Below are positions 1 through 11,637 of a stretch of DNA of 11,637 bases, in pieces. Numbering within the stretch: the first letter of the stretch is position 1; each line of letters opens with the position of its first letter. The stretch is taken from the IMG/VR virus record IMGVR_UViG_2534681675_000022; one strand, given 5' to 3'. This stretch comes from a virus (Duplodnaviria > Heunggongvirae > Uroviricota > Caudoviricetes). Under the pieces are notes generated by a model. The model saw only the letters and a list, made by a program, of their open reading frames with translations. It was not told the DNA's origin and ran no database searches. The position numbers and the translations under genes are program-made.

Positions 1-1218
1 ATGAACAAACTGAGCGATACCTTGCTAAGGAAACTTCATGGTAAGCCAGCGGAGAAAAACACGTTTTATAGCGATGGCGGAAATCTGAGCGTGAAATATT
101 TAACATCAGGGAAATTAACCTGGTATTTCACTTACAGGGCAGGAACGGGAAGAGAGACACGACCGGAACGTATTAAGCTGGGAAATTATCCTGATCTGAG
201 CCTGAAAGCAGCCAGGGAAAAAGCCGCCCAGTGTCGCGCATGGCTGGCGGAGGGGAAAAATCCACGCCATGAGATGAATTACGCCGTACAGGAAGCGTTA
301 AAGCCGGTAACGGTTGGCGATGCGCTCACCTACTGGCTTGAGTCGTATGTAAAGGAAAACCGCGTGGATTATATCGCCCTGAAAAGGCGACTTAATAATC
401 ACGTAATACAGTACATTGGCGCTATGCCGCTGGATAAATGCGAGCTACGGCACTGGCTGGCCTGTTTTGACCAGGTGGCAAAGCGAACACCTGTTACTGC
501 CGGATTCGTGCTACAGACATGCAAGCAGGCGCTTAAGTTCTGCCGGAGGCGGCGCTTTGCAATCAGCAACGTTCTCGATGATCTGAACGTGGCGGACGTT
601 GGGAAAAAACCGGATATAAGCGAACGTGTCTTAAGCACCAAAGAACTGGGCGAGTTATTGCAGGCGCTGGATAAAAAAATATTTTCTCCTTACTACGTCG
701 CGTTAATCCGCCTCCTGATTGTCTTCGGAGCCAGGACGGTAGAACTGAGGTTATCGGAGATCAGCGAGTGGGATTTTACCGAAATGCTATGGACCGTTCC
801 GAAGGAGCACAGCAAAACGAAGGTTGCAATATTCCGGCCCATACCGGAAGCGATCCTGCCGTTCGTCACGCGGCTGGTGGACCAGAACAGGCACACGGGC
901 TTATTACTGGGGGAAGTGAAACAGGAGGCTAGCGTATCGCAGTACGGCAGATTAGCGCACAGGAGGCTAAAACACCCTCAATGGTCATTGCATGACATCC
1001 GGCGCACCTTTACAACCATGCTGAACGATTTAGGCGTTGATCCTCACGTCGTGGAGCAGCTTACAGGCCACCAGATGCCAGGAATGCAACGCGTGTACAA
1101 CCATTCCCGCTATATTGATGCGAAACGCAATGCGCTTGATATGTGGGTGGAGCGGTTGGAGATACTGGCGGGAACACATGAAAACGTAACCACGCTACCA
1201 GTAACCAGAATAAAATAA
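1..1218 (+). CDS. int: Tyrosine integrase, P4-like (N-terminal arm-type DNA-binding domain plus C-terminal catalytic domain)
   Basis: 405-aa ORF. N-terminus (KLSDTLLRKL...FYSDGGNLSVKY...WYFTYR...IKLGNYPDLSLKAAREKA) fits the arm-binding domain pattern of P4-family integrases; C-terminus has H-x-x-R (LHDIRRTF) and a catalytic Tyr context (VYNHSRY). Judged by motif, not by search. Confidence 0.9.
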   Translation: MNKLSDTLLRKLHGKPAEKNTFYSDGGNLSVKYLTSGKLTWYFTYRAGTGRETRPERIKLGNYPDLSLKAAREKAAQCRAWLAEGKNPRHEMNYAVQEALKPVTVGDALTYWLESYVKENRVDYIALKRRLNNHVIQYIGAMPLDKCELRHWLACFDQVAKRTPVTAGFVLQTCKQALKFCRRRRFAISNVLDDLNVADVGKKPDISERVLSTKELGELLQALDKKIFSPYYVALIRLLIVFGARTVELRLSEISEWDFTEMLWTVPKEHSKTKVAIFRPIPEAILPFVTRLVDQNRHTGLLLGEVKQEASVSQYGRLAHRRLKHPQWSLHDIRRTFTTMLNDLGVDPHVVEQLTGHQMPGMQRVYNHSRYIDAKRNALDMWVERLEILAGTHENVTTLPVTRIK

Positions 1219-1401
1219 TTTTTTTCGTGTTTTTTCAGTATGCGCATACTGGATAAGTGCACAGATACAACGTGAAACAATGTGCAACAACGTGACACAA
1301 TCACGAACAAGAGGCCAAAAAGAATACAGATTTGTAAGTTACTGATTTTTAATGCTCAGCTGGTTTTTTATACATTAGTGAATTACGCGTTAAAGCGTGC
1401 G

Positions 1402-1438
1402 AAAAAAGGCATAAAACAAGATTTTATGCCTTTGTATT
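1402..1438. terminator. Hairpin with flanking A-run and T-run; candidate bidirectional intrinsic terminator between int and alpA
   Basis: GGCATAAAA (1408-1416) / TTTTATGCC (1422-1430) 9-bp stem with 5-nt loop, preceded by AAAAAA and followed by TTTGTATT; reads as hairpin plus U-run on both strands. Confidence 0.35.
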
Positions 1439-1592
1439 AACATGAATTTAAATGATTTTATCCTGATTATTCCTCTTTCTGTAAACCATGCGACACCAAC
1501 ATTTGCCAACTCTGAATCATCCTGACACAATCAGACACATCCCAACGCAATAGAACACGAAATAACTCTTTAAGAAACGAAAGGGGGCAATA

Positions 1593-1781
1593 GTGTTAAG
1601 CACTGATCGGTTTATACGTGAAAAAGAATGCGAAAAGCTAACAGGCCTTAGCCGCTCATGCCGCTACCGCCTGGAAAAGGCCGGACAATTCCCATCACGT
1701 CGTAAACTTGGCGGGCGTTCTGTTGGCTGGTCTTTATCTGAGGTTTTGGCCTGGAAGGATAGCTGCAAGGCAGTTCACTAA
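1593..1781 (+). CDS. alpA: AlpA-family phage transcriptional regulator (small HTH protein)
   Basis: 62-aa ORF with GTG start at 1593 and a GGGGG Shine-Dalgarno upstream. Sequence LTGLSRSCRYRLEKAGQFPSRRKLGGRSVGWSLSEVLAW matches the AlpA/prophage CP4-57 regulator signature. Position directly after int is typical of PICI and P4-like islands. Confidence 0.8.
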   Translation: MLSTDRFIREKECEKLTGLSRSCRYRLEKAGQFPSRRKLGGRSVGWSLSEVLAWKDSCKAVH

Positions 1782-1922
1782 AAAGACTGGCGGCACACAG
1801 TCGCCACACATCCACTAATACAGAGATATAACTATGAAGATTGAATATGCGCCCGAACGTGGGCGGGGATTCGTTCGCCCTGGTGAAACTGAAAAACAAC
1901 AAAATTGGGGTTTTTCAGGCAT

Positions 1923-1951
1923 AAAAAAAGCGGCCCCGATATGGAGCCGCC
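1923..1951 (-). terminator. Intrinsic terminator on minus strand, downstream of the 2025-2228 minus-strand ORF
   Basis: On the minus strand: GCGGC stem, 12-nt loop, GCCGC, then seven T residues. Confidence 0.4.
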
Positions 1952-2024
1952 TTTCTGAACAATTAACCTGCTGCGCCTTATGTGTATGTGATCCCAAACA
2001 TAAGCACGGGAATGATAGCCGCTA

Positions 2025-2228
2025 TCAGGCTGGTGGGCAATTACCTTGCTTGTTGGGGCCGTATTGTGCTGCCATTTTCATCCGTTCAGAACGTGAATAT
2101 TTTTTTAGAAACTCATCAAGGACAAAAGCGCATGGAGCGAATCTTTCTGATTCATGCTCGAGCGCCATATTTTCGTGCTCTCTGTTCGTTTTTTGCGATG
2201 GTGTATTGGTTGATTCTTTATTGGTCAT
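2025..2228 (-). CDS. Hypothetical small protein (67 aa), paralog 1 of a duplicated pair
   Basis: ORF begins MTNK, shares the motif F-x-L-[DE]-[DE]-F-[LV]-x-K-Y with the 2686-2913 ORF, is preceded by the same conserved leader and followed by a minus-strand terminator. The overlapping plus-strand ORFs are Cys/Ser/Arg-rich and look non-coding. Confidence 0.45.
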   Translation of the reverse strand: MTNKESTNTPSQKTNREHENMALEHESERFAPCAFVLDEFLKKYSRSERMKMAAQYGPNKQGNCPPA

Positions 2229-2233
2229 TGTGT

Positions 2234-2279
2234 GTACCTGTAAAGCAATGCGCCGGAGTTCCTCACGCCACGGCGCTGA
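2234..2279. repeat. Conserved ~45-bp leader element, copy 1 (5' of the minus-strand ORF 2025-2228)
   Basis: About 44 of 47 positions identical to 2923-2966. On the minus strand it reads ATCAGCGCCGTGGCGTGAGGAACTCCGGCGCATTGCTTTACAGG, containing a GCGCCG/CGGCGC 6-bp stem. Confidence 0.6.
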
Positions 2280-2521
2280 TGTTTTTTATTCTTTGGGTTC
2301 AATACCGCGTTGCTGTAATTCTTTTCGGATTATTCGTTTTATCCAAGCTGCTAAAGAGTCATCACCGTCTTGTTGTTGTGCTTTTTCCATCTTTTCCCGT
2401 AAGTCAGGATCTAAACGGAACTGGAAAGGAGGATTACCACGCCTTTCATTTTTGTGTGTTGACACGTCAATTACACCCCATATAATGTGTTTATGTGTAT
2501 ATACACATTACACACAACTAG

Positions 2522-2566
2522 CACAAAAAACAACGCCCCGCAGTGATGGGAACACATACGGGGCGT
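2522..2566 (-). terminator. Intrinsic terminator on minus strand, downstream of the 2686-2913 ORF
   Basis: ACGCCCCG / CGGGGCGT 8-bp stem with 18-nt loop; on the minus strand it is followed by TGTTTTTTGTGC. Confidence 0.4.
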
Positions 2567-2685
2567 CTAACCAAACCATTAATTGAGGTAACGATTATGG
2601 CTATAAAAGAGCATAGCTTACTCTTTATACACACACAAACGCCCCGGAAACGGAATAATCCGTTTCATAGTTCGGTTTTGTGCAC

Positions 2686-2913
2686 TCATCCTGGCGGTCG
2701 GTTTTTGCCGGATTTAAGCCGCCGTGGGTATTTATCGACAAAATCTTCAAGGGCAAATTTTTCTGGTGGCACTAAGCGCGGCGCTGGTGGTGGTATTTTT
2801 GTTCTGGTTAGTTCTTCCTCAAGTCTGGCGCAGGCTTCTGACTGCCTTTGCCGGATGATTTCATCATCTTGCGTTTGCGTGTCTTGTATTGGTGATAGTG
2901 TGTTGTTGGTCAT
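2686..2913 (-). CDS. Hypothetical small protein (75 aa), paralog 2 of a duplicated pair
   Basis: ORF begins MTNN, contains FALEDFVDKYPRR (compare FVLDEFLKKYSRS in the 2025-2228 ORF), and has the same leader immediately 5'. Confidence 0.45.
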   Translation of the reverse strand: MTNNTLSPIQDTQTQDDEIIRQRQSEACARLEEELTRTKIPPPAPRLVPPEKFALEDFVDKYPRRLKSGKNRPPG

Positions 2914-2922
2914 GTTACTGCC

Positions 2923-2966
2923 CTGTAAAGCAATGCGCCGTAGTACCTCACACCACGGCGCTGATA
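2923..2966. repeat. Conserved ~45-bp leader element, copy 2 (between RHH gene stop and ORF 2686-2913)
   Basis: Near-identical to 2234-2279. The three differences all fall in the loop of the GCGCCG/CGGCGC hairpin, so the stem is preserved. Confidence 0.6.
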
Positions 2967-2970
2967 GTGA

Positions 2971-3150
2971 TTATTCTGATTCTTTGGCCTTGCGGCGCTG
3001 GCGGCGTTTGATCTCGCCTTCAAGTGCCGAAACGATAAATTGCCCTGTACTTTCGCCATCTTCCTTTAAATTTTCTACAGCATCAGCTATTGCGTGTGGT
3101 ACTCGAGCCTCAAGCTTTTTGGATTTTGCATTAACTGCTTTTGTTGCCAT
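2971..3150 (-). CDS. Ribbon-helix-helix (Arc/MetJ/CopG-like) DNA-binding protein, 59 aa; candidate island repressor
   Basis: Internal ATG at 3148-3150 with a GAGGAAA Shine-Dalgarno; the ORF track's longer 106-aa version has a poor N-terminus. MATKAVNAKSKKLEARVPHAIADAVENLKEDGESTGQFIVSALEGEI fits the RHH strand/helix/G-x-S/helix pattern (compare Arc ...NLRWPREVLDLVRKVAEENGRSVNSEIYQRV). Divergent from the rightward operon. Confidence 0.5.
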   Translation of the reverse strand: MATKAVNAKSKKLEARVPHAIADAVENLKEDGESTGQFIVSALEGEIKRRQRRKAKESE

Positions 3151-3171
3151 ATCTGATTTCCTCGTTATTAG

Positions 3172-3251
3172 GTGGCTGACAGTATACACACAAGAAAACG
3201 GAAAAACACTATTGACGTGGCTGACACCCGTTACTAATATAGTGGCTGACA
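3172..3251. promoter_or_regulatory. Divergent control region: three direct repeats GTGGCTGACA overlapping a sigma70-like promoter
   Basis: Perfect 10-bp GTGGCTGACA at 3172-3181, 3217-3226 and 3242-3251. TTGACG (3212-3217), 17-bp spacer, TAATAT (3235-3240) faces the plus-strand operon; repeats overlap the -35 and abut the -10. Confidence 0.5.
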
Positions 3252-3344
3252 CCTTTATCAAGGTAATCGATGAAAAGACAAAGCCCCGCAAGTGTCGTTA
3301 CCACTCGCAGGGCTTCTAACCAACAACGTAAACTAGGAGCCGTT

Positions 3345-3542
3345 ATGGTTGCCGTAAATCATATACCACACCTTGTACACACACAAACTGCCTTTGTGTG
3401 GCGTTTTCTGGCCCTGAGTGCCGGAGAATCTCAAATCATCCACGTCACCGCCTGGACGGAACGCGAAGCGCGTAACCGTTGCCCGTCCGGTTGTGTTGCT
3501 GTATTTGCCGCCCGTATTCGTCAGGAGGTGCGCCATGATTAA
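3345..3542 (+). CDS. Hypothetical protein (65 aa), first gene of rightward operon
   Basis: ATG at 3345 preceded by AGGAG; the longer ORF-track version starts upstream of the RBS. Stop overlaps the start of the next ORF. Confidence 0.5.
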   Translation: MVAVNHIPHLVHTQTAFVWRFLALSAGESQIIHVTAWTEREARNRCPSGCVAVFAARIRQEVRHD

Positions 3543-3747
3543 TCTGTCACTTACTGACCTTAACCGCATTCAGTTTCGTGAGAAATTCACAGGGCAGCTA
3601 CTGGTCAATGTGGATAAAGGTCGCGTGGTGTGTAATTACCACTTACCAGATGAAGCAATTGTCGCCACAAGGGAATCATTACAGGAAATCACAAAACGTG
3701 CCGGAATGATTAACACGAATATTCAGGGGATGCTTTATGCACAATAA
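3535..3747 (+). CDS. Hypothetical protein (70 aa)
   Basis: ATG at 3535 preceded by CAGGAGGTG; translationally coupled to the flanking ORFs. Confidence 0.5.
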   Translation: MINLSLTDLNRIQFREKFTGQLLVNVDKGRVVCNYHLPDEAIVATRESLQEITKRAGMINTNIQGMLYAQ

Positions 3748-3967
3748 AACCACACCGGACGCAGCAGAAGAAGCAATGCAAATACTGATACGTGCGCTCG
3801 TTGATGTTACCCACATGGTGGAGATTATGGAGAGAAAATCACAGTCGGAGCACGACAAAAGAAAACTTAAAACAATAAAAATAATTGCCAAAAACTCGCT
3901 GATAAAAGTTACAGACATCCTTAATGAGGACATTAAAAGAATAAGGGAGAAAATTTGTGATGCATAA
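3737..3967 (+). CDS. Hypothetical protein (76 aa), AT-rich
   Basis: ATG at 3737 with upstream CAGGGGA; Lys/Ile/Glu-rich helical-looking protein; local GC is visibly lower than in neighbours. Confidence 0.5.
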   Translation: MHNKTTPDAAEEAMQILIRALVDVTHMVEIMERKSQSEHDKRKLKTIKIIAKNSLIKVTDILNEDIKRIREKICDA

Positions 3968-4187
3968 AATCCCTTTTGAAGTATTAATCCACTCTGAAAA
4001 CGCATTAATTAAAGCACGCGAAATGAATGCGTTGTTAATTAAATTAATTGAAGTGCCGGAAGGTGGTGAGGAATCAGGTGTATTAATGTTTGCAGCCATT
4101 CAGACATTACTATCGCCTGTTATTGATGAACTGGATAAGGCAATGGCAATTCACGAAAATAATAACGCGCCCCACACCGGAGAATAA
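3957..4187 (+). CDS. Hypothetical protein (76 aa), AT-rich
   Basis: GTG 3957 or ATG 3960 with AAGGGAGA upstream; overlaps the previous stop. Confidence 0.5.
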   Translation: MMHKIPFEVLIHSENALIKAREMNALLIKLIEVPEGGEESGVLMFAAIQTLLSPVIDELDKAMAIHENNNAPHTGE

Positions 4188-4192
4188 AAATA

Positions 4193-4492
4193 ATGAAACT
4201 TAAATATTCTGGCTTAACTGCCAGTGGCAACACTCACCCTAAATTTACGCGCGGTGATATTTACCGCGACCAGTACGGCGGCACGGTAATGATTAAGGGC
4301 GTGGCGGGACGGTGCGTAACTTACCGCCATGAAGGTTACGAATATGATTGCGTGATGCCTGTTTATCAGTTCCGGCGTGATTTTTCTCTGGTACAGACCG
4401 CGCCGCATAACGTGCCCACCAGCAACGCCAGGGCACGGGCAAACATCCAGAAGCTGAAAACCATGATTAACGGATTCAGGGGTAAAAAATGA
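4193..4492 (+). CDS. Hypothetical protein (99 aa), overlaps start of replication gene
   Basis: ATG 4193 with GGAGA upstream; its stop overlaps the ATG of the primase ORF (ATGA coupling). Confidence 0.55.
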   Translation: MKLKYSGLTASGNTHPKFTRGDIYRDQYGGTVMIKGVAGRCVTYRHEGYEYDCVMPVYQFRRDFSLVQTAPHNVPTSNARARANIQKLKTMINGFRGKK

Positions 4493-6237
4493 AACTGGCA
4501 CCGAACGTAAAAAAACAGCCACGCGGAATAAAACACAAAGACACAGAGGTAATTATCTTTGCGGGTAGTGATGCCTGGTCGCACGCGAAACAATGGCAGG
4601 AGCAGGATGGCCCCGCATCCGGCGATAATGTGCCGCCTGTGTGGCTTGGGCCAAAGCAGCTTGCCGAACTTGATGCGCTGAAAATTGTTCCGGATGGGAA
4701 AAAGCGCGTAAGGCTGTACCAGGCCGGAGAACTGGATTTAGTGGAGACCAAAAAGATTGGTCAGAAGCTGGCGGCGGCAGATATTCAGGACGCAAATTTT
4801 TACCACGAAGGAATGCACGTCCAGAAGTGTGAAAACTGGCGGCGCTATCTGAATGCTGAGCGTGAAAATATTGCCGCAGGGCTTACCATGCCGGAGCAGA
4901 AAAATACGCAACTGGCACAAATGGCAGACAGTGAGCGCGCACAGATGCTTGCTGGTCGATTTGATGGCGTTTGTGTGCATCCGGAAAGTGAAATCGTTCA
5001 CGTATGGCGCGGCGGGGTATGGTGTCCGGTCAGCACAATGGAACTTAGCCGCGAAATGGTGGCGATCTATTCAGAGCACAGGGCCACTTTCAGCAAACGC
5101 GTGATCAATAACGCCGTTGAAGCGTTAAAAGTTATTGCCGAACCAATGGGGGAGCCGTCCGGCGATTTGTTGCCGTTCGCCAATGGTGCGCTTGACCTGA
5201 AAACGGGGGAATTTTCCCCGTACACGCCGGAGAACTGGATCACCACGCACAACGGCATTGAGTACACGCCACCAGCACCTGGGGAGAACATCCGCGATAA
5301 CGCGCCAAACTTTCATAAATGGCTTGAGCACGCAGCCGGAAAAGACCCGCGCAAGATGATGCGTATATGTGCCGCGCTGTACATGATTATGGCGAACCGG
5401 TACGACTGGCAGATGTTTATTGAGGCCACCGGAGACGGCGGGAGCGGTAAAAGTACATTCACACACATAGCCAGCCTTCTGGCAGGGAAACAGAACACGG
5501 TAAGCGCTGAAATGACATCGCTTGATGATGCTGGTGGACGTGCGCAGGTTGTCGGGAGTCGTCTTATCGTCCTGGCAGACCAGCCGAAATATACAGGCGA
5601 AGGAACGGGCATCAAGAAAATCACGGGCGGCGACCCCGTGGAAATAAACCCGAAATATGAAAAGCGTTTCACGGCGGTAATCAGGGCGGTGGTGCTGGCG
5701 ACCAATAATAACCCGATGATATTCACCGAACGGGCCGGAGGTGTGGCACGTCGTCGCGTGATTTTCCGTTTCGACAATATTGTTAGTGAGGCCGAAAAAG
5801 ACAGGGAACTACCGGAAAAAATTGCGGCTGAAATCCCCGTTATTATCCGCCGCTTGCTGGCGAACTTTACCGACCCTGAAAAGGCGAGGGCTTTACTACT
5901 GGAACAGCGTGACGGTGATGAAGCACTGGCAATAAAGCAACAGACGGATCCGGTTATTGAGTTTTGCCAGTTCCTGAATTTTCTGGAGGAAGCGCGCGGC
6001 CTGATGATGGGTGGCGGTGGTGATTCAGTGAAGTACACGACCAGGAACAGCCTTTACCGCGTCTATCTGGCGTTTATGGCATACGCAGGCAGGAGCAAAC
6101 CGCTAAACGTGGCTGAGTTCAGCAAGGCCATGAAGCCAGCGGCGAAAGTTTACGGGCATGAATATATTACGCGAAAAGTTAAGGGAGTAACGCAGACCAA
6201 CGCAATTACAACAGACGATTGCGACGCGTTTTTATAA
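4489..6237 (+). CDS. Replication initiator: phage/plasmid primase-associated D5_N-type domain plus P-loop (SF3-helicase-like) NTPase
   Basis: 582-aa ORF. Walker A GDGGSGKST and a Walker B-like hydrophobic stretch RLIVLADQ; central region typical of the P4-family primase C-terminal/D5_N architecture; located directly upstream of an iteron array. Confidence 0.85.
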   Translation: MKLAPNVKKQPRGIKHKDTEVIIFAGSDAWSHAKQWQEQDGPASGDNVPPVWLGPKQLAELDALKIVPDGKKRVRLYQAGELDLVETKKIGQKLAAADIQDANFYHEGMHVQKCENWRRYLNAERENIAAGLTMPEQKNTQLAQMADSERAQMLAGRFDGVCVHPESEIVHVWRGGVWCPVSTMELSREMVAIYSEHRATFSKRVINNAVEALKVIAEPMGEPSGDLLPFANGALDLKTGEFSPYTPENWITTHNGIEYTPPAPGENIRDNAPNFHKWLEHAAGKDPRKMMRICAALYMIMANRYDWQMFIEATGDGGSGKSTFTHIASLLAGKQNTVSAEMTSLDDAGGRAQVVGSRLIVLADQPKYTGEGTGIKKITGGDPVEINPKYEKRFTAVIRAVVLATNNNPMIFTERAGGVARRRVIFRFDNIVSEAEKDRELPEKIAAEIPVIIRRLLANFTDPEKARALLLEQRDGDEALAIKQQTDPVIEFCQFLNFLEEARGLMMGGGGDSVKYTTRNSLYRVYLAFMAYAGRSKPLNVAEFSKAMKPAAKVYGHEYITRKVKGVTQTNAITTDDCDAFL

Positions 6238-6250
6238 TTTTTTGTAAAAG

Positions 6251-6477
6251 CCCTCTACCCCATCTACCTGAATGAAATAAACGCATATTATTCAACATGA
6301 TAAGTGGGTAGAGGGCCAGGTAGAAGGCTAATAAAAGCTCTCTACCTCTTCTACCTGATTTTATCAGTTTCAGATGGCAGGGTAGACGGCAGGTAGAGGA
6401 GCACCAAAAGCTATCTACCCGCTGAAAGCCGCGCCATTACTGACATGATGAGCATTCGGGTAGATGGGTAGAGGGGG
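6251..6477. repeat. Iteron array (candidate replication origin)
   Basis: About 11 copies of GGTAGA[GATC]GG in both orientations, arranged in pairs (CCCTCTACCCCATCTACC; GGGTAGAGGGCCAGGTAGAAGG; CTCTCTACCTCTTCTACC; GGGTAGACGGCAGGTAGAGG; CTATCTACCC; GGGTAGATGGGTAGAGGG) with AT-rich spacers, immediately 3' of the replication gene. Confidence 0.7.
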
Positions 6478-6520
6478 GGAGGCACAACTAAAAACTTTTT
6501 AAACGAGGGGGTGAAAATAA

Positions 6521-6835
6521 ATGCGCATACATCAAAATCACTTAACAAACATGCCAGCCGAAAACATGAATCAGGGGCGACAAATGACCAAAATTCGCAG
6601 AGACAGAACAGAGCCAAAATATAAAGCGTTAGACATGACTGAGCACACCTTAAAGGTGGCAATCAGAACGATAGACCGCCACACGCGGGAAGGATACGCG
6701 AAGGAACATCCCGAACTGATAAGCGCATTCATGACCACAGCGGCGGCAAACTTTGCCACGCTGACAGAACGGGAGATTGCCGAAGCGGAACAGGTAACAA
6801 CCATCAACGTTAAAACCGGAGAGGTGGAATCATGA
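6521..6835 (+). CDS. Hypothetical protein (104 aa)
   Basis: ATG 6521 preceded by GAGGGGGTG; its stop overlaps the SSB start. Confidence 0.5.
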   Translation: MRIHQNHLTNMPAENMNQGRQMTKIRRDRTEPKYKALDMTEHTLKVAIRTIDRHTREGYAKEHPELISAFMTTAAANFATLTEREIAEAEQVTTINVKTGEVES

Positions 6836-7242
6836 CAGCACAGATAGCCGCTTACGGGCGGCTGGTGGACGACCCGCAGGTAAAACAGACCAGCAAGGGC
6901 ACACCGATGACGCTGGCGCGTATGGCGGTCCCCCTTCCGTGCAGCCAGGCAGATGACGGAACGGCTACGTTATGGCTATCGGTGATGGCATTTGGTAAGC
7001 AGGCCGACTTCCTGGCTAAACATCAAAAAGGCGACGTTGCCAGCATATCTGGCGTGATGCAGATAAGCCAGTGGACCGGACTGAACGGGGAAACGCGGCA
7101 GGGTTATCAGGTTATTGCAGACAGCGTAATCAGTGCCCGTGCGGCACGTCCTGGCGGGAACAGACGCAAAACCACAGGCGCACAGGGTAATCAGCCACCA
7201 GCGGGAGACGATGACCCCTACGGTGATGATATTCCGTTCTGA
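6832..7242 (+). CDS. ssb: Single-stranded DNA-binding protein (OB fold) with acidic C-terminal tail
   Basis: 136-aa ORF. N-terminal GRLVDDPQVKQTSKG and the W...FGK...KG...G spacing fit the SSB OB fold; Gly/Gln/Pro-rich linker; C-terminal DDDPYGDDIPF is the canonical SSB tail motif. Confidence 0.75.
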   Translation: MTAQIAAYGRLVDDPQVKQTSKGTPMTLARMAVPLPCSQADDGTATLWLSVMAFGKQADFLAKHQKGDVASISGVMQISQWTGLNGETRQGYQVIADSVISARAARPGGNRRKTTGAQGNQPPAGDDDPYGDDIPF

Positions 7243-7250
7243 ACGCACAG

Positions 7251-7273
7251 GCCGGAGAAAATCCGGCTTTTTG
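7251..7273 (+). terminator. Intrinsic terminator after ssb
   Basis: GCCGGA gaaaa TCCGGC followed by TTTTT. Nearly identical to the terminator at 9517-9542. Confidence 0.7.
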
Positions 7274-7276
7274 TAC

Positions 7277-7325
7277 CCAAAAAAAGCCCGATAAGTACAG
7301 GAGGAAGCTTATCGGGCTTTTGCTT
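7277..7325. terminator. Second hairpin with flanking A/T runs; candidate bidirectional terminator
   Basis: AAGCCCGATAAG (7284-7295) / CTTATCGGGCTT (7308-7319) 12-bp stem, 12-nt loop, preceded by AAAAAAA and followed by TTTGCTT. Confidence 0.5.
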
Positions 7326-7394
7326 ACGAGGTTAACAGCATGGTGACTACTGTTGCTGTAAATCATTTCATAATTTGCAACGCAACTCAATTTT

Positions 7395-7444
7395 ATTGCG
7401 CAAAATGCAATCATGATTATAATCATAACTGGATGAACATCCAG
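7395..7444 (+). promoter_or_regulatory. Candidate late-operon promoter with embedded palindromic operators
   Basis: Perfect TATAAT (7418-7423) with a weak -35 (TTGCGC, 17-bp spacer). The -10 sits inside a perfect 14-bp palindrome ATGATTATAATCAT (7413-7426), followed by a perfect 16-bp palindrome CTGGATGAACATCCAG (7429-7444). Confidence 0.4.
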
Positions 7445-7479
7445 TTGTGATTTTTTAAGTCAAAGAGGAATTTCTGACT

Positions 7480-7686
7480 ATGGCAGAAGAGAAAAAAGGC
7501 GGTGTTTCGGTGTACATAAGCCCCGAAATCGTGGAGGTGCTCAAGCAGCGCCACAAAAAAAACTATGAGGCTGGCGTAGCGGCTGGACTGGATCCGCTGA
7601 TGACGCCGGAGCCGTCGATAGGTTCACTTGTGCGCTCTTATTTACTTGCGGCGCTTGGGATGCATAAAAATTATGGGGGTGAATAA
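7480..7686 (+). CDS. Hypothetical protein (68 aa), first gene of capsid operon
   Basis: ATG 7480 with AGAGGA upstream; its stop overlaps the ATG of the major capsid gene. Confidence 0.55.
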   Translation: MAEEKKGGVSVYISPEIVEVLKQRHKKNYEAGVAAGLDPLMTPEPSIGSLVRSYLLAALGMHKNYGGE

Positions 7687-8741
7687 TGGCAGGCAAAGCA
7701 ACGGCACTTAACACTAACCAGCTTTTTGCGTACCTGAATCGCGGGGATATTGCGGAATTTAAATTCAGTCCGCTGTTTACCACGCTGTTTTTCCCGAACG
7801 TGGCGACATTCAGCACCCAAAACATCATGCTGGATACCCTGGACATTGAAGAAGTCACCATGTCGGCGTTTTGTTCGCCTATGGTTGGCAGCCAGGTACA
7901 GCGCGATAAAGGATACGAAACCAGCACGATTAAACCTGGCTACATGAAGCCAAAGCACGAAATCGATCCAACAAAAACCATCATGCGCATGGCTGGAGAA
8001 GATCCGGCACAGCTTAACGACCCTACCTACCGACGTATGCGCCTGATTACTGGCAACATGCGCCGCCAGGTAAACGCCATTAAAGCGCGCGTGGAATGGC
8101 TGGCGGTGAATGCGATAACGACCGGAAAAAACATTATTGAGGGCGAAGGCATAGAACGCTATGAAATAGACTGGAAAATACCGGAAAACTGCATCATAGA
8201 GCAGGCCAAGGGTAAAAAATGGTCCGAGCAGGATAAAGAGATGCACGACCCAATCTATGACATCGAGCTTTATGCAGATCAGGCTGGTTGCCCCGCAAAC
8301 GTCATGATTATGGGCGCTGAGGTATGGCGCACGTTACGCAGCTTTAAAAAATTCCGTGAGCTGTACGATCTTTCCCGTGGTTCAGAATCCGCCGCAGAAC
8401 TGGCCTGTAAAAACCTGGGCGAAGTGGTGAGCTTTAAAGGCTATCTGGGCGATATTGCCCTTATCGTCTATTCCGGCAAATACGCTGACAGCGACGGCAC
8501 CGAAAAATATTTCCTTGAGCCTGATTTACTGGTCCTGGGTAACACCAACAATAAAGGCCTGGTGGCCTATGGTGCGATTATGGATCAGGAAGCGGTCAGA
8601 ACGGGCGCAACGCAAAACATGTACTACCCGAAAAACTGGATTGAGGACGGCGATCCGGCGATTGAGTACGTGCAGACACACAGCGCACCGCAGCCGGTAC
8701 CGGCAGATATTCGCAAATTTGTTACCGTCAAAATTGGTTAA
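7686..8741 (+). CDS. Major capsid protein, phage lambda gpE family
   Basis: 351-aa ORF colinear over its whole length with lambda gpE (341 aa) as I recall it: EFKFSPLF vs KFKFDPLF; PGYMKPKHEI vs PGYVKPKHEV; EDPAQLNDPTYRRMR vs EDPQNLADPAYRRRR; SRGSESAAELACKNLGEVVSFKGYLGDIALIVYSGKY vs RRGSNSELETAVKDLGKAVSYKGMYGDVAIVVYSGQY; YPKNWIEDGDPAIEY vs YPKNWVTTGDPAREF. Confidence 0.9.
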   Translation: MAGKATALNTNQLFAYLNRGDIAEFKFSPLFTTLFFPNVATFSTQNIMLDTLDIEEVTMSAFCSPMVGSQVQRDKGYETSTIKPGYMKPKHEIDPTKTIMRMAGEDPAQLNDPTYRRMRLITGNMRRQVNAIKARVEWLAVNAITTGKNIIEGEGIERYEIDWKIPENCIIEQAKGKKWSEQDKEMHDPIYDIELYADQAGCPANVMIMGAEVWRTLRSFKKFRELYDLSRGSESAAELACKNLGEVVSFKGYLGDIALIVYSGKYADSDGTEKYFLEPDLLVLGNTNNKGLVAYGAIMDQEAVRTGATQNMYYPKNWIEDGDPAIEYVQTHSAPQPVPADIRKFVTVKIG

Positions 8742-8752
8742 CGGGGGATTCT

Positions 8753-9088
8753 ATGGACACTCCATACATTGAGTTATTCGCAGGCAGTCAGCAGGTCGCC
8801 ACGACGCTGGTACATTTTGCCGCTGATGCTGGCGTTATTCAGGAATTTACCCCGCTGATGCTGGCGGACAATGGCGAGTTTAAGCCGTGGGATGGTCAGG
8901 AATCTGGCAAGGCTGTTTATCTGACTTCGTACCCCGTGGACACGTCGACGCAGAAATCAGCACAGTGTTACAAGACGGGGATATTTAATATCGCTGCCGT
9001 AAACTGGCCTGAGAGCGCCGACACTGACGCGAAAAAATGCGCTGCCTTTGCGGGGGCTGGCGTATCCGTTCAGCCGCTGGCCCGATAA
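8753..9088 (+). CDS. Head decoration protein, phage lambda gpD family
   Basis: 111-aa ORF. TPLMLADNGEFKPWDG, YKTGIF and WPESADTDAKKCAAFAGAGVSV match lambda gpD ([46 protein letters not shown]). GGGGGA Shine-Dalgarno upstream. Confidence 0.85.
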   Translation: MDTPYIELFAGSQQVATTLVHFAADAGVIQEFTPLMLADNGEFKPWDGQESGKAVYLTSYPVDTSTQKSAQCYKTGIFNIAAVNWPESADTDAKKCAAFAGAGVSVQPLAR

Positions 9089-9097
9089 GCAGGGGGA

Positions 9098-9514
9098 ATG
9101 ATGGCAACGAATGAAAGCATCATGACGCTACCGCTGGCGAGTAAATTTAAAGCCGAAGCGCGGGCAATGGCTGACAGAGGGTTATCAACCTACGAGGGCA
9201 TATATCAACTTAACAAACTGGAAGAGCAGGACAAGCCGCGCGCTGATTCGATTATGGCGCTTGATGAATCTGGCGACTATCAGCCGCTGTTACGTGCAAT
9301 GGCAAACGTGCCTTGTATCGATGTTGGTACGGCTAAAAGCATCCTTAGCATGACCATAGAGCAGGAACGTCCGAAGGTTGCGCCGGAGCTTACCGCAGCC
9401 TTTGAAAACTTTATGGACACGCACAGCCCGCAAGCCGTATCAGCTGGCATGGCATACGATGGCAGAAACCCGGGCGATGACGGCGACATCGATCGCATAC
9501 TGAAAACCATCTGA
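9098..9514 (+). CDS. Hypothetical protein (138 aa) downstream of the capsid genes
   Basis: ATG 9098 or 9101 after AGGGGG; last gene before the terminator and cos. Sits where lambda has FI, but I could not support sequence similarity to FI. Confidence 0.55.
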   Translation: MMATNESIMTLPLASKFKAEARAMADRGLSTYEGIYQLNKLEEQDKPRADSIMALDESGDYQPLLRAMANVPCIDVGTAKSILSMTIEQERPKVAPELTAAFENFMDTHSPQAVSAGMAYDGRNPGDDGDIDRILKTI

Positions 9515-9516
9515 GA

Positions 9517-9542
9517 CAGGCCGGAGAAATCCGGCTTTTTTT
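9517..9542 (+). terminator. Intrinsic terminator after the capsid operon, abutting cos
   Basis: GCCGGA gaaa TCCGGC followed by eight T residues; near-duplicate of the 7251-7273 terminator. Confidence 0.75.
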
Positions 9543-9610
9543 ACGGGTCCTTTCCGGCATATGGACCCGTTACGGGGCGGCGACCTCGCGCGTTTTCGCT
9601 ATTTATGAGC
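9543..9610 (+). other. Lambda-type cos site A: cosQ-side flank, cosN (12-nt cohesive end GGGCGGCGACCT at 9575-9586) and first ~24 bp of the cosB side
   Basis: ACGGGTCCTTTCCGG...GTTACG GGGCGGCGACCT CGCGCGTTTTCGCTATTTATGA is almost base-for-base the lambda right-end/left-end junction as I recall it; similarity ends after TTTATGA. Confidence 0.75.
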
Positions 9611-9719
9611 CTTTTCAGGGGGGTGGTGGTGGTTTTGTTGTTTGCTCTATCTTTATGAATGAAAAGGGAAAGATGCAAACAATACACCAACCTGAAGCAG
9701 TAATTAAGTTGGTGTATTA

Positions 9720-10262
9720 ATGAAATCGCACCTGATGAACAAAAAAAACATGGCGAAAAGCTGCCGTGTAAGTGCGACAGCGTTCGACAAGTGGGGAGTG
9801 ACTCCCGTTGAACGTAAAGGCCGTGAGGCGTTTTATGATGTTGCCAGCGTGATAGACAATAGGGTTAACAATGCAATTAGCCAGCTTACAAACGACAAAG
9901 GCGATATTGATGATGATGAACTCTTACGAGTCAGGATCAGATTACTGACAGCACAGGCGGAGGCGCAGGAACTTAAAAACGAGCGCGATCGCGGTGACGT
10001 GATTGATACTGAGTTTTGCCTGTACGCGCTTTCAAAGCTGGCGAGTCAGATTTCATCAATCATGGACAGCCTCCCGCTTACTATGCAAAGGAGCTTCCCA
10101 CAGATTACCCCCGCCATGCTGGACAGGCTTAAAAGGGAAGTGGTTAAAGCCTGTAATGCCAGTGCCAGAGTTGCCGACAACCTCCCACAGATACTGGCTG
10201 ATTACTTGAAAGAAACAACCGGAAACGTACCGGAAAAGTTGCTACAGAAGAAAGGCAAGTAA
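9720..10262 (+). CDS. Terminase small subunit, lambda Nu1 family
   Basis: 180-aa ORF. C-terminal two-thirds align with lambda Nu1: LLTAQAEAQELKNERD vs LTRAQADAQELKNARD; FCLYALSKLASQISSIMDSLPLTMQRSFPQ vs FCTFVLSRIAGEIASILDGLPLSVQRRFPE; LKREVVKACN vs LKRDIIKAMN. N-terminal wHTH region is recognisable (NKK..., YDVASVI vs YDSAAVI) but divergent in the recognition-helix region. Start could be 9720, 9735 or 9750. Confidence 0.85.
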   Translation: MKSHLMNKKNMAKSCRVSATAFDKWGVTPVERKGREAFYDVASVIDNRVNNAISQLTNDKGDIDDDELLRVRIRLLTAQAEAQELKNERDRGDVIDTEFCLYALSKLASQISSIMDSLPLTMQRSFPQITPAMLDRLKREVVKACNASARVADNLPQILADYLKETTGNVPEKLLQKKGK

Positions 10263-10288
10263 CAGAAGCGCAATTATTGAACAAAAAT

Positions 10289-10490
10289 GAGAAAGGATCT
10301 GATAATGGCATTTTCTGGCTAAAATGCCTCGTGTCAGATCCTTTCTTTTTTTAATATTTTCATTGTTAAACAGTCTGTTACAGAGAAGAAGAACGGATCT
10401 GACTTTTGCCGGAAAATTTTCATAAACAGATAAAAACCGCGAGGTCGCCGCCCCGTAACGGGCCATAATTCCAGGAAGGACCCGACGACA
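10289..10490 (-). other. Lambda-type cos site B in inverted orientation: cosQ-side flank, cosN (10442-10453) and a full cosB-like region with three R-like repeats
   Basis: Minus strand reads CGGGTCCTTCCTGGAATTATGGCCCGTTACG GGGCGGCGACCT CGCGGTTTTTATCTGTTTATGAAAATTTTCCGG ...CCGTTCTTCTTC..., tracking lambda cos for more than 100 bp. Core GGATCTGA/TCAGATCC at 10294-10301, 10333-10340 and 10395-10402 sits where lambda has CGTTTCC/GGAAACG, in the same orientation pattern. The inner 13-bp inverted repeat (10289-10301 / 10333-10345) plus T-run also looks like a terminator for terS. Confidence 0.75.
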
Positions 10491-10517
10491 CCAGGCTATC
10501 AGAACGATGGGGGCACA

Positions 10518-10799
10518 ATGACAGAAGCCGAACTACTGCGATTAATCCGCCGCGTTACCGGAATCAGCCAGCAGCATGACGAACAGGGCACGCAACCGGA
10601 CAGCGTGACCGCTGAAAATTATGCGCGTGTTGTTGCTGAGGTGATGCGCCGTGATGGTATTGAGCTTAACGGCGTGGATATGCGCAACATACGAACCAGA
10701 GTCCTTGAGTTGCTGGCATACCGTCGCCGCGTGGAGATGTATCGGGAGAAGGAGAAAATCACGTACCACTGGAAGAAGCCGGAACGGTTGCGGCGGTAA
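10518..10799 (+). CDS. Hypothetical protein (93 aa) just outside cos B
   Basis: ATG 10518 after GATGGGGG; Arg-rich helical-looking protein; no recognisable family. Confidence 0.4.
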   Translation: MTEAELLRLIRRVTGISQQHDEQGTQPDSVTAENYARVVAEVMRRDGIELNGVDMRNIRTRVLELLAYRRRVEMYREKEKITYHWKKPERLRR

Positions 10800-10882
10800 C
10801 TCACTGAGATTAAAGCAAAGCTCAAAATTGCGCTGGCTGAATGATCATTATGATTACTTATGTTTACGCAGATGATTAAGGC
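10789..10882. repeat. Direct repeat, copy 1 (~90 bp), overlapping the 3' end of the 93-aa ORF
   Basis: GGCGGTAACT...TTAAAGCAAAGC[TG]CAAAATTGCGCTGGCTGAAT[GA]ATCATTATGATTAC...GCAGATGATTAAGG; copy 1 has an extra TTATGTT relative to copy 2. Confidence 0.6.
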
Positions 10883-10922
10883 CTAAACCGTTGATTATTC
10901 CACAATCCCCCATTGGGGGAAG

Positions 10923-11005
10923 CTGGCGGTAACTGGTTGAACTTAAAGCAAAGCGCAAAATTGCGCTGGCTGAATAATCATTATGATTACGCAGATGATT
11001 AAGGA
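10923..11005. repeat. Direct repeat, copy 2 (~83 bp)
   Basis: Same unit as 10789-10882. Contains the AGCGCAA aa TTGCGCT hairpin and the ATCATTATGAT palindrome. Confidence 0.6.
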
Positions 11006-11022
11006 ATGACCGAAGGCGGAAA

Positions 11023-11322
11023 TTCGCCTGTGGTTGATGGGGGAGTTGCAGATCTGCAACTCGACCATGAAATTACGGAAACTACCCGTAGTTTGGGTAG
11101 TAAGAGCAACACCCAGATTTTGGGGCTTACTCGTGATACCCAAATTTGGGGTATCGGCGGCAACCATAACGACTTTCGTTACGGTTGATGCTTTTACCCC
11201 ATTGAGGGAAAGGTATTACGATAATCATAACACCTACCGAACAGGTAAAGCCCACCAGCCTGATTAACTGTTAACCGGAAAAAAATTCCGGTAGGGTTCC
11301 CGATATGGGAATCCCCATATCG
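11023..11322. other. Palindrome-dense non-coding region near the right end of the island (candidate att arm / regulatory or structured RNA region)
   Basis: Consecutive perfect or near-perfect palindromes: AGGCGGAAATTCGCCT; GTTGCAGATCTGCAAC (16 bp); AAACTACCCGTAGTTT; GATACCCAAATTTGGGGTATC; TTAACTGTTAA; CCGGAAAAAAATTCCGG; CGATATGGGAATCCCCATATCG. No convincing ORF. Confidence 0.4.
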
Positions 11323-11484
11323 ACAGCAACGCCCCCTTAAAATTACCCGCCTTTATATTTCTTGTGCCTATTTGTTCCACGTTGTTTCATACAGTGCGCC
11401 GAACGGTGTAGTCACTGGTGTAGTTATTTTGAGTTTTTTTGCACTTCGGGCTTAATTGAAAATATAATTAAATCAGTATGTTAT

Positions 11485-11637
11485 TCAAAATAAGTTATAT
11501 ATAACAGCAATAAATAATGCGAGAATAAACGGCACGAGGATCTCGGCGGCAAAACGGATACCGCAGAGAATAATGACCAGCATTCCCAACATAATGACGA
11601 TTTTTAGACCATTGAGCGTGATGATCGGCTTTGCCAT
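11485..11637 (-). CDS. Short ORF (50 aa): N-terminal fragment resembling the AI-2 exporter TqsA/YdgG (AI-2E family) membrane protein, apparently truncated at the island junction
   Basis: Minus-strand translation from the ATG at 11637: [46 protein letters not shown], then YNLF and stop. This matches the TqsA N-terminus as I recall it for ~46 residues; the downstream sequence becomes AT-rich and unrelated. Confidence 0.5.

Follow-up and report, generated by a model that had tools for sequence, protein, structure and literature searches.

The minus-strand reading frame that starts at the last base of the 11,637-nt stretch of DNA analysed here (the window) raises the question of whether an integrated island has broken tqsA, the gene for the AI-2 exporter TqsA of E. 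coli, and, if so, whether the break is mended by the island itself, is permanent, or can be undone. In our judgement, with a probability of roughly 0.92, the window represents almost the whole of an 11.7-kb Gram-negative phage-inducible chromosomal island (GN-PICI) of the EcCI042 / EcCIK1516 / EcCICFT073 type, inserted at a core within tqsA and splitting this gene without repair.

The frame at the window's right edge occupies 11485-11637 on the minus strand, is initiated by ATG and, as listed and translated, has 50 codons. A preliminary description took it to be the N-terminus of TqsA, and BLASTP bears this out, with 46 of 48 amino acids identical to K-12 TqsA (b1601, 344 aa; E = 3e-27); the 50-aa peptide had no Pfam match, which is uninformative. 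Residues 1-46 are the same as those of E. coli K-12 TqsA at 45 of 46 positions, the sole change (I34L) being a strain polymorphism, and are followed by an island-encoded tail, YNLF, and a stop, as anticipated by the statement that the gene is interrupted after about 46 codons. At the nucleotide level, the 5' tqsA fragment runs from the start codon to the second base of codon 46 (11501-11637, minus strand) and aligns exactly to K-12 tqsA except for polymorphisms, while the native upstream region of the gene lies past the window's right edge. Beyond the fragment the sequence diverges into AT-rich DNA, again as described previously; the terminal spacer between the arm repeats and the core (11431-11500), which is specific to tqsA-targeting islands, has 23% G+C, against 48% for the whole window. 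When window positions 11200-11637 were searched by megablast against 5,426 complete E. coli genomes, 5,423 had a match at the tqsA locus. The features beneath these matches are annotated as 'pheromone autoinducer 2 transporter', and identity to pseudogene fragments so annotated reaches 99.5%.

Both junctions were resolved by comparison with the uninterrupted K-12 locus. The window comprises the island minus its left-most 187 bp, together with the 5' tqsA fragment, and the left end and attL are known from near-identical genomes. E. coli OkiPb01694 (NZ_AP042564.1; locus L002) is 99.9% identical to the whole window, with 7 mismatches, and window position n corresponds to position n + 4000 of this locus. 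Base by base against K-12, the last tqsA-identical base is window position 11501 (tqsA nt 137, codon 46). The left-hand tqsA match stops at L002 3813 and the right-hand match starts at window position 11501, and in K-12 the two overlap by exactly 9 bp, ATAACAGCA, which corresponds to tqsA nt 129-137 in codons 43-46. One copy of this repeat forms attR (11501-11509) and the other attL (L002 3805-3813, 187-195 bp left of window position 1); genomes with an empty site match up to exactly this position. On these alignments the 9-bp direct repeat is the att core, and its presence at both island ends supplies the short direct repeat that the preliminary description had proposed to look for. From core to core the island measures 11,696 bp in OkiPb01694, with int adjoining attL, and related islands residing between roxA and phoQ cease matching at window position 11446. 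The right junction had earlier been put near 11497; its placement at the tqsA fragment was correct, but its exact position was not, since the boundary falls at 11500/11501, with the core at 11501-11509, four bases away. That integration took place within a protein-coding gene rather than at a tRNA is confirmed by the position of the core in tqsA codons 43-46; an RNA target, whether tRNA or of another kind, is rejected because neither ARAGORN nor Rfam returned any match in the window.

The mechanism is the ordinary site-specific integration of a phage satellite. A P4-type tyrosine integrase would have recombined the island attP with a chromosomal attB sharing the 9-bp ATAACAGCA in tqsA codons 43-46. 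The gene is thereby divided into a 5' piece that retains the native start and encodes TqsA 1-46 plus YNLF, and a 3' piece (codons 44-344) beyond the window's left end that has neither a start codon nor a detectable promoter. The preliminary description had envisaged either inactivation of the exporter or provision of its 3' portion at the other end, and suggested a search for the remaining codons to the left of int. They are found there. In OkiPb01694 the order is pntA, pntB, the tqsA 3' part, a 60-codon hypothetical ORF, int ... TerS ..., the tqsA 5' pseudogene and ydgV-mdtJI; the 3' part (codons 44-344; L002 2907-3812, minus strand) is annotated by PGAP as 'incomplete; missing N-terminus'. 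In four loci (L001, L002, L005, which is E. coli EcPF40, and L006) the divided gene has kept its K-12 neighbours, ydgV-mdtJI beside one piece and pntB beside the other, and the 5' piece is a PGAP pseudogene 'missing C-terminus'. Comparison with the uninterrupted K-12 locus thus confirms the split. Of the two outcomes, inactivation is upheld; the original codons 44-344 are indeed present to the left of int, but they are not part of a repair supplied by the island, since TGA and TAA codons precede the core.

These stop codons bear directly on the proposal that the int-proximal end of the island provides tqsA with a new N-terminus and a promoter, much as icd- and tRNA-targeting elements replace 3' ends, so that the gene would not be inactivated at all. 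What lends this proposal some colour is the 60-codon ORF on the minus strand (L002 3819-4001), which exits the island towards the tqsA remnant in the same frame. However, translation of three frames across attL shows that it closes with TGA and then TAA right before the core (...K N T N (stop) (stop) N A V I L N P...; TGA TAA AAT, then the core); its sequence is unlike that of TqsA 1-46, and it lies across the putative Int arm sites. Direct identity between the att sites extends over only 9 bp, so that attP carries no replacement sequence. We found no promoter directed towards the 3' remnant and reject an outward promoter driving it, since L002 3600-4300 contains a single promoter-like site, which is oriented towards int. 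Moreover, both tqsA pieces are PGAP pseudogenes in every genome inspected (L001, L002, L005 and L006). Taken together, the stop codons, the lack of replacement sequence in attP and the lack of an outward promoter indicate that tqsA is inactivated and not repaired; a substitute N-terminus has next to no probability and is already refuted at the sequence level. The ORF itself is annotated by PGAP as a 60-aa hypothetical protein (WP_001364171.1); it ends at window position 1, overlaps the int start as well as the putative Int arm sites and runs outward to attL, and is probably not a real gene but a chance reading frame across the attP arm.

Split without repair, tqsA retains no intact 344-codon frame at this locus: the frame stops after 50 codons and the rest of the gene lies 11.7 kb away without a start codon. 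A second, intact copy elsewhere would have offered another way out, and the preliminary description regarded an intact tqsA with no fragment at the island's left end as evidence against its interpretation. The left fragment is present, however, and OkiPb01694 contains a single place that matches the tqsA 5' end; a second intact copy is likewise rejected by genome-wide place counts, which fit either an intact site or two halves. Judged by its reading frames, the tqsA of an island carrier is a split pseudogene that would yield no functional member of the AI-2E family, although the 50-aa N-terminal peptide could still be produced. The lesion nevertheless appears reversible in principle. When the island of OkiPb01694 was excised in silico and the tqsA fragments were joined at the core, the restored gene encoded a 344-aa TqsA identical to that of K-12, and the same operation on L001 restored the ORF with a single substitution. 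Precise excision would hence rebuild intact tqsA; it is expected to be mediated by Int and AlpA and, in GN-PICIs, to be triggered by helper phage, although the reconstruction made here is in silico only.

The structure of TqsA indicates what the break would mean for the protein. In the cryo-EM model (PDB 7nb6; PMC9475539), helix H1 (Thr7-Phe29) provides the pentamer with its main cytoplasmic contact, and H2 (Ala31-Trp57) lies horizontally, embedded in the membrane. With the chain broken after residue 46, inside H2, H1 is separated from the remaining protein, so neither fragment should give a working exporter, and we infer that TqsA is non-functional for as long as the island is resident. In a tqsA deletion mutant, intracellular AI-2, lsr expression, biofilm formation and motility are reported to be increased (Herzberg 2006, as cited in PMC9475539), and by analogy island carriers would be expected to behave in the same way.

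The content of the island identifies it as a phage satellite. At its left end, the tyrosine integrase gene (1-1218, plus strand; Pfam Arm-DNA-bind_3 and Phage_integrase, PHROG 1) has an annotated GTG start 12 nt to the left of the window, from which it encodes 409 aa. It is followed on the same strand by genes for an AlpA-family excisionase/transcriptional activator (1593-1781; Pfam Phage_AlpA 5e-18, PHROG 2790), a D5-type primase forming a pri-rep replication module (4489-6237; PHROG 864 at 9e-168, Pfam D5_N, DUF5906 and Pox_D5) and a single-strand DNA-binding protein (6832-7242; Pfam SSB, PHROG 44). Further to the right are genes for a lambda gpE-like major capsid protein (7686-8741; Pfam Phage_cap_E 4.6e-51, PHROG 29), a lambda gpD-like head decoration protein (8753-9088; Pfam HDPD 3.4e-17, PHROG 49) and a Nu1-like small terminase subunit, TerS (9720-10262; Pfam Phage_Nu1 2.3e-23, PHROG 57), all on the plus strand. 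Other island genes encode proteins of the Icd-like and DUF4222 types. Pfam returned no match for ten small ORFs, and 17 of the 21 annotated genes lie on the plus strand. No portal, protease, TerL, tail or lysis genes were found in the annotation or among the 10 largest proteins, which were scanned against Pfam and PHROG. Between the decoration and TerS genes, 9098-9514 (plus strand) encodes a 138-aa protein that is called 'hypothetical' or 'head-tail connector' depending on the genome; its match to PHROG 53 (head maturation protease) is limited to the C-terminal 70 positions, so that a scaffold-like protein (lambda Nu3-like) seems more plausible than a connector.

These features agree with those by which Fillol-Salom et al. 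(2018) recognize GN-PICIs: a length of 10-15 kb, short direct repeats at the ends with int at one of them, alpA and a pri-rep module, mostly unidirectional rightward transcription, the absence of tail, lysis, portal and large-terminase genes, which implies dependence on a helper, and a PICI-specific att site, in this case the core ATAACAGCA in tqsA. According to Tommasini et al. (PMC10111431), 21 of 29 reference GN-PICIs carry a major capsid gene. The head and packaging genes of the window are confined to those for the capsid, the decoration protein, the 138-aa protein and TerS, and classification as a capsid-forming PICI (cf-PICI) is rejected because the island is without portal, protease and TerL genes.

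Both the tqsA site and this family of elements are already known. Two islands located in tqsA with the core ATAACAGCA, EcCI042 (E. coli 042, 11 kb) and EcCIK1516 (11.4 kb), and a third, EcCICFT073, located in ycfD-phoQ with the core GGACATATTT, were tabulated by Fillol-Salom et al. (2018, ISME J, PMC6092414 Suppl. table), and the published cores are the same as those derived independently from the sequences here. EcCI042 (FN554766.1 1832521-1843554) resembles the window island in its tqsA site, 9-bp core, length of about 11 kb and split-tqsA annotation, as well as in the order int-alpA-...-rep-ssb-capsid-decoration, and its Int is 95.4% identical. The relationship is mosaic, however, with only 66% of the window aligning, at 81-97% identity: EcCI042 has a RepA-type helicase in place of the D5-type primase, lacks the Nu1-like TerS and has an annotated PerC, whereas no gene of the window island is so annotated. 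EcCICFT073, the model GN-PICI, with lambda and phi80 as helpers (Fillol-Salom 2018/2019), shares the backbone and arm-repeat architecture but sits in the ycfD(roxA)-phoQ intergenic region, at the core GGACATATTT, where no gene is disrupted. It carries a lambda E-like capsid gene (c1499) and a D-like decoration gene (c1500), and for this element PMC6092414 reports induction by helper phage, replication and high-frequency transfer. Bobay et al. (2013) listed tqsA as an integration-disrupted gene that is otherwise core. Mageeney et al. (2020, PMC7192596) described the TIGER islands Eco33.11.tqsA, Eco557.15.tqsA and Eco282.16.tqsA (11, 15 and 16 kb), which likewise disrupt the UPF0118 domain of tqsA without restoring it and are thus instances of the same phenomenon; they were mapped computationally and proposed as cases of 'regulated gene integrity' (RGI), in an account that apparently gives them no satellite class, and they probably belong to the same element families.

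How a backbone of this kind can occupy two different sites is indicated by its termini. Two tandem 11-nt repeats, GGTGTAGTCAC and GGTGTAGTTAT, lie at 11405-11427 (plus strand), and a repeat search located a co-oriented GGTGTAGTCAC/GGTGTAGTTAT pair beside int, outside the window (L002 3942-3964). The motif has four matches in the 19.6-kb OkiPb01694 locus, all at the two island ends, where 0.01 would be expected by chance, and the repeats are embedded in a 76-nt imperfect direct repeat (L002 3892-3967 and 15355-15430). By analogy with the co-oriented motif pairs that flank attP in related PICIs, they are probably arm-type integrase sites. A relative inserted between roxA and phoQ (locus L003) aligns to window positions 4-11446 at about 95% identity, but its Int (L003 2986-4215) is only 89.5% identical to that of the window, and 15 of the 43 differences fall within the first 50 residues, which form the arm-binding domain, with nine more in residues 151-200. 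The arm repeats differ correspondingly (GGTGTAGTTAA in L003, GGTGTAGTCAC in the window), as do the cores (GGACATATTT and ATAACAGCA). Immediately interior to attL the two islands share a conserved sequence (TTTTATCAATTAGTG...), whereas the last ~54 bp before attR differ. The pair illustrates how altered Int and att sequences can redirect an element to a new site, in agreement with published integrase-clade analyses. The Nu1-like TerS gene of the roxA-phoQ island (L003 12697-13239) lies on the opposite strand to its counterpart in the window (9720-10262), which suggests inversion of a module.

To assess how often tqsA is interrupted in this way, we counted sites with a 240-bp probe centred on the core in the 5,423 genomes with a tqsA match. 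The probe is contiguous, and attB therefore intact, in 5,170 genomes and split in about 253; attL-type junctions, in which the tqsA remnant adjoins the int arm seen here, occur in 247 genomes and attR-type junctions in 241. An element is thus present at the tqsA site in about 4.6% of complete E. coli genomes, such that roughly one genome in 22 has no intact tqsA owing to a phage satellite, a matter of consequence for the interpretation of AI-2 and biofilm phenotypes across strains and for the status of tqsA as a core gene. A two-piece attB match in E. coli 2 HS-C was considered as an excision scar and rejected, being an internal tandem duplication in tqsA (L007 1488-2730). The duplicated 208 bp (tqsA nt 173-380) shift the frame and inactivate the gene, and are unrelated to the att core, which occurs once.

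The occupants of the site are diverse, comprising PICIs with primase, RepA-helicase or DUF927 replication modules and a cf-PICI. The latter, a 15.3-kb element in E. coli EcPF40 (L005 2053-17324), carries genes for capsid, HK97 protease, portal, head closure, connector, HNH, TerS and TerL. It shares the tqsA site and has an Int 99% identical to that of EcCI042; in contrast, the window island is without portal, prohead protease, TerL, HNH and head-closure genes. The presence of a cf-PICI at tqsA fits the statement that four of six cf-PICI attB sites, the prototype cf-PICI being EcCIEDL933, are common to classical PICIs (Alqurainy et al., bioRxiv 10.1101/2022.09.08.507074). In EcPF40 the tqsA 3' remnant contains a nonsense codon, S298*, so excision could no longer bring back an intact gene in at least one lineage.

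Decay of a remnant in a lineage that carries another element raises the possibility that the window island is itself a decayed, immobile relic and the disruption of tqsA a fixed pseudogenisation. We consider this very unlikely. The genes int, alpA and pri, both att cores and all four arm repeats are intact, and copies 98.5-99.9% identical are found in strains from different hosts and countries, alongside mosaic relatives at the same site, which indicates recent mobility. The element of the window is accordingly best regarded as a GN-PICI that is presumably still mobile.

Mobility and in silico restorability together invite the suggestion that the insertion has been selected as a reversible on/off switch of AI-2 export, a form of regulated gene integrity comparable to 'active lysogeny' that would tie quorum sensing and biofilm formation to helper-phage induction. 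The idea is not new, since Mageeney et al. (2020, PMC7192596) included tqsA in their 19 new RGI candidates, just as the site, the core and the element family have all been published previously. The arrangement described here has the form that RGI presupposes: tqsA is disrupted, attP brings no replacement sequence, and in silico excision restores a perfect ORF in OkiPb01694 and one with a single substitution in L001. The site is reused by different elements, both PICIs with varied replication modules and a cf-PICI, and the increases in intracellular AI-2, biofilm and motility that PMC9475539 attributes, citing Herzberg (2006), to tqsA deletion would give such a switch something to act upon. On the other hand, PICI excision normally accompanies lytic growth of the helper phage, so that the cell regaining tqsA usually dies; S298* in the EcPF40 remnant shows that selection does not always keep the remnant restorable, which weighs against a universally maintained switch; and occupancy amounts to only about 4.6% of genomes. 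A selected switch therefore seems unlikely to us, and we are slightly more doubtful again of the particular version in which PICI and cf-PICI occupancy of tqsA in general operates as a reversible AI-2 export switch, with excision, possibly rare and non-lytic, restoring export. Were it correct, carriers would retain AI-2 inside the cell and shift in biofilm formation and motility, and satellite carriage would be coupled to social behaviour.

Several further features of the island deserve mention. At 2025-3150, a two-gene cassette of small ORFs occurs twice in tandem (67 + 59 aa and 75 + 59 aa), on the minus strand and against the direction in which the remaining island genes are transcribed. 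The annotation assigns one of the 59-aa genes to the YlcI/YnfO family, and none of the four has a Pfam match. A 75-nt repeat with 80% identity between the two copies lies at 2218-2292 and 2903-2977, and this zone exists in different versions in EcCI042 and in the roxA-phoQ relative. The int-alpA intergenic region contains, just 3' of int at 1267-1306, three tandem 10-nt units (ACAACGTGAA / ACAATGTGCA / ACAACGTGAC), which could be a binding array for a regulator. Near the right end, 3' of a 93-aa ORF, a direct repeat of about 90 nt (10792-10881 and 10925-11004; 89-96% identity, spacing 133) is a possible packaging or regulatory site.
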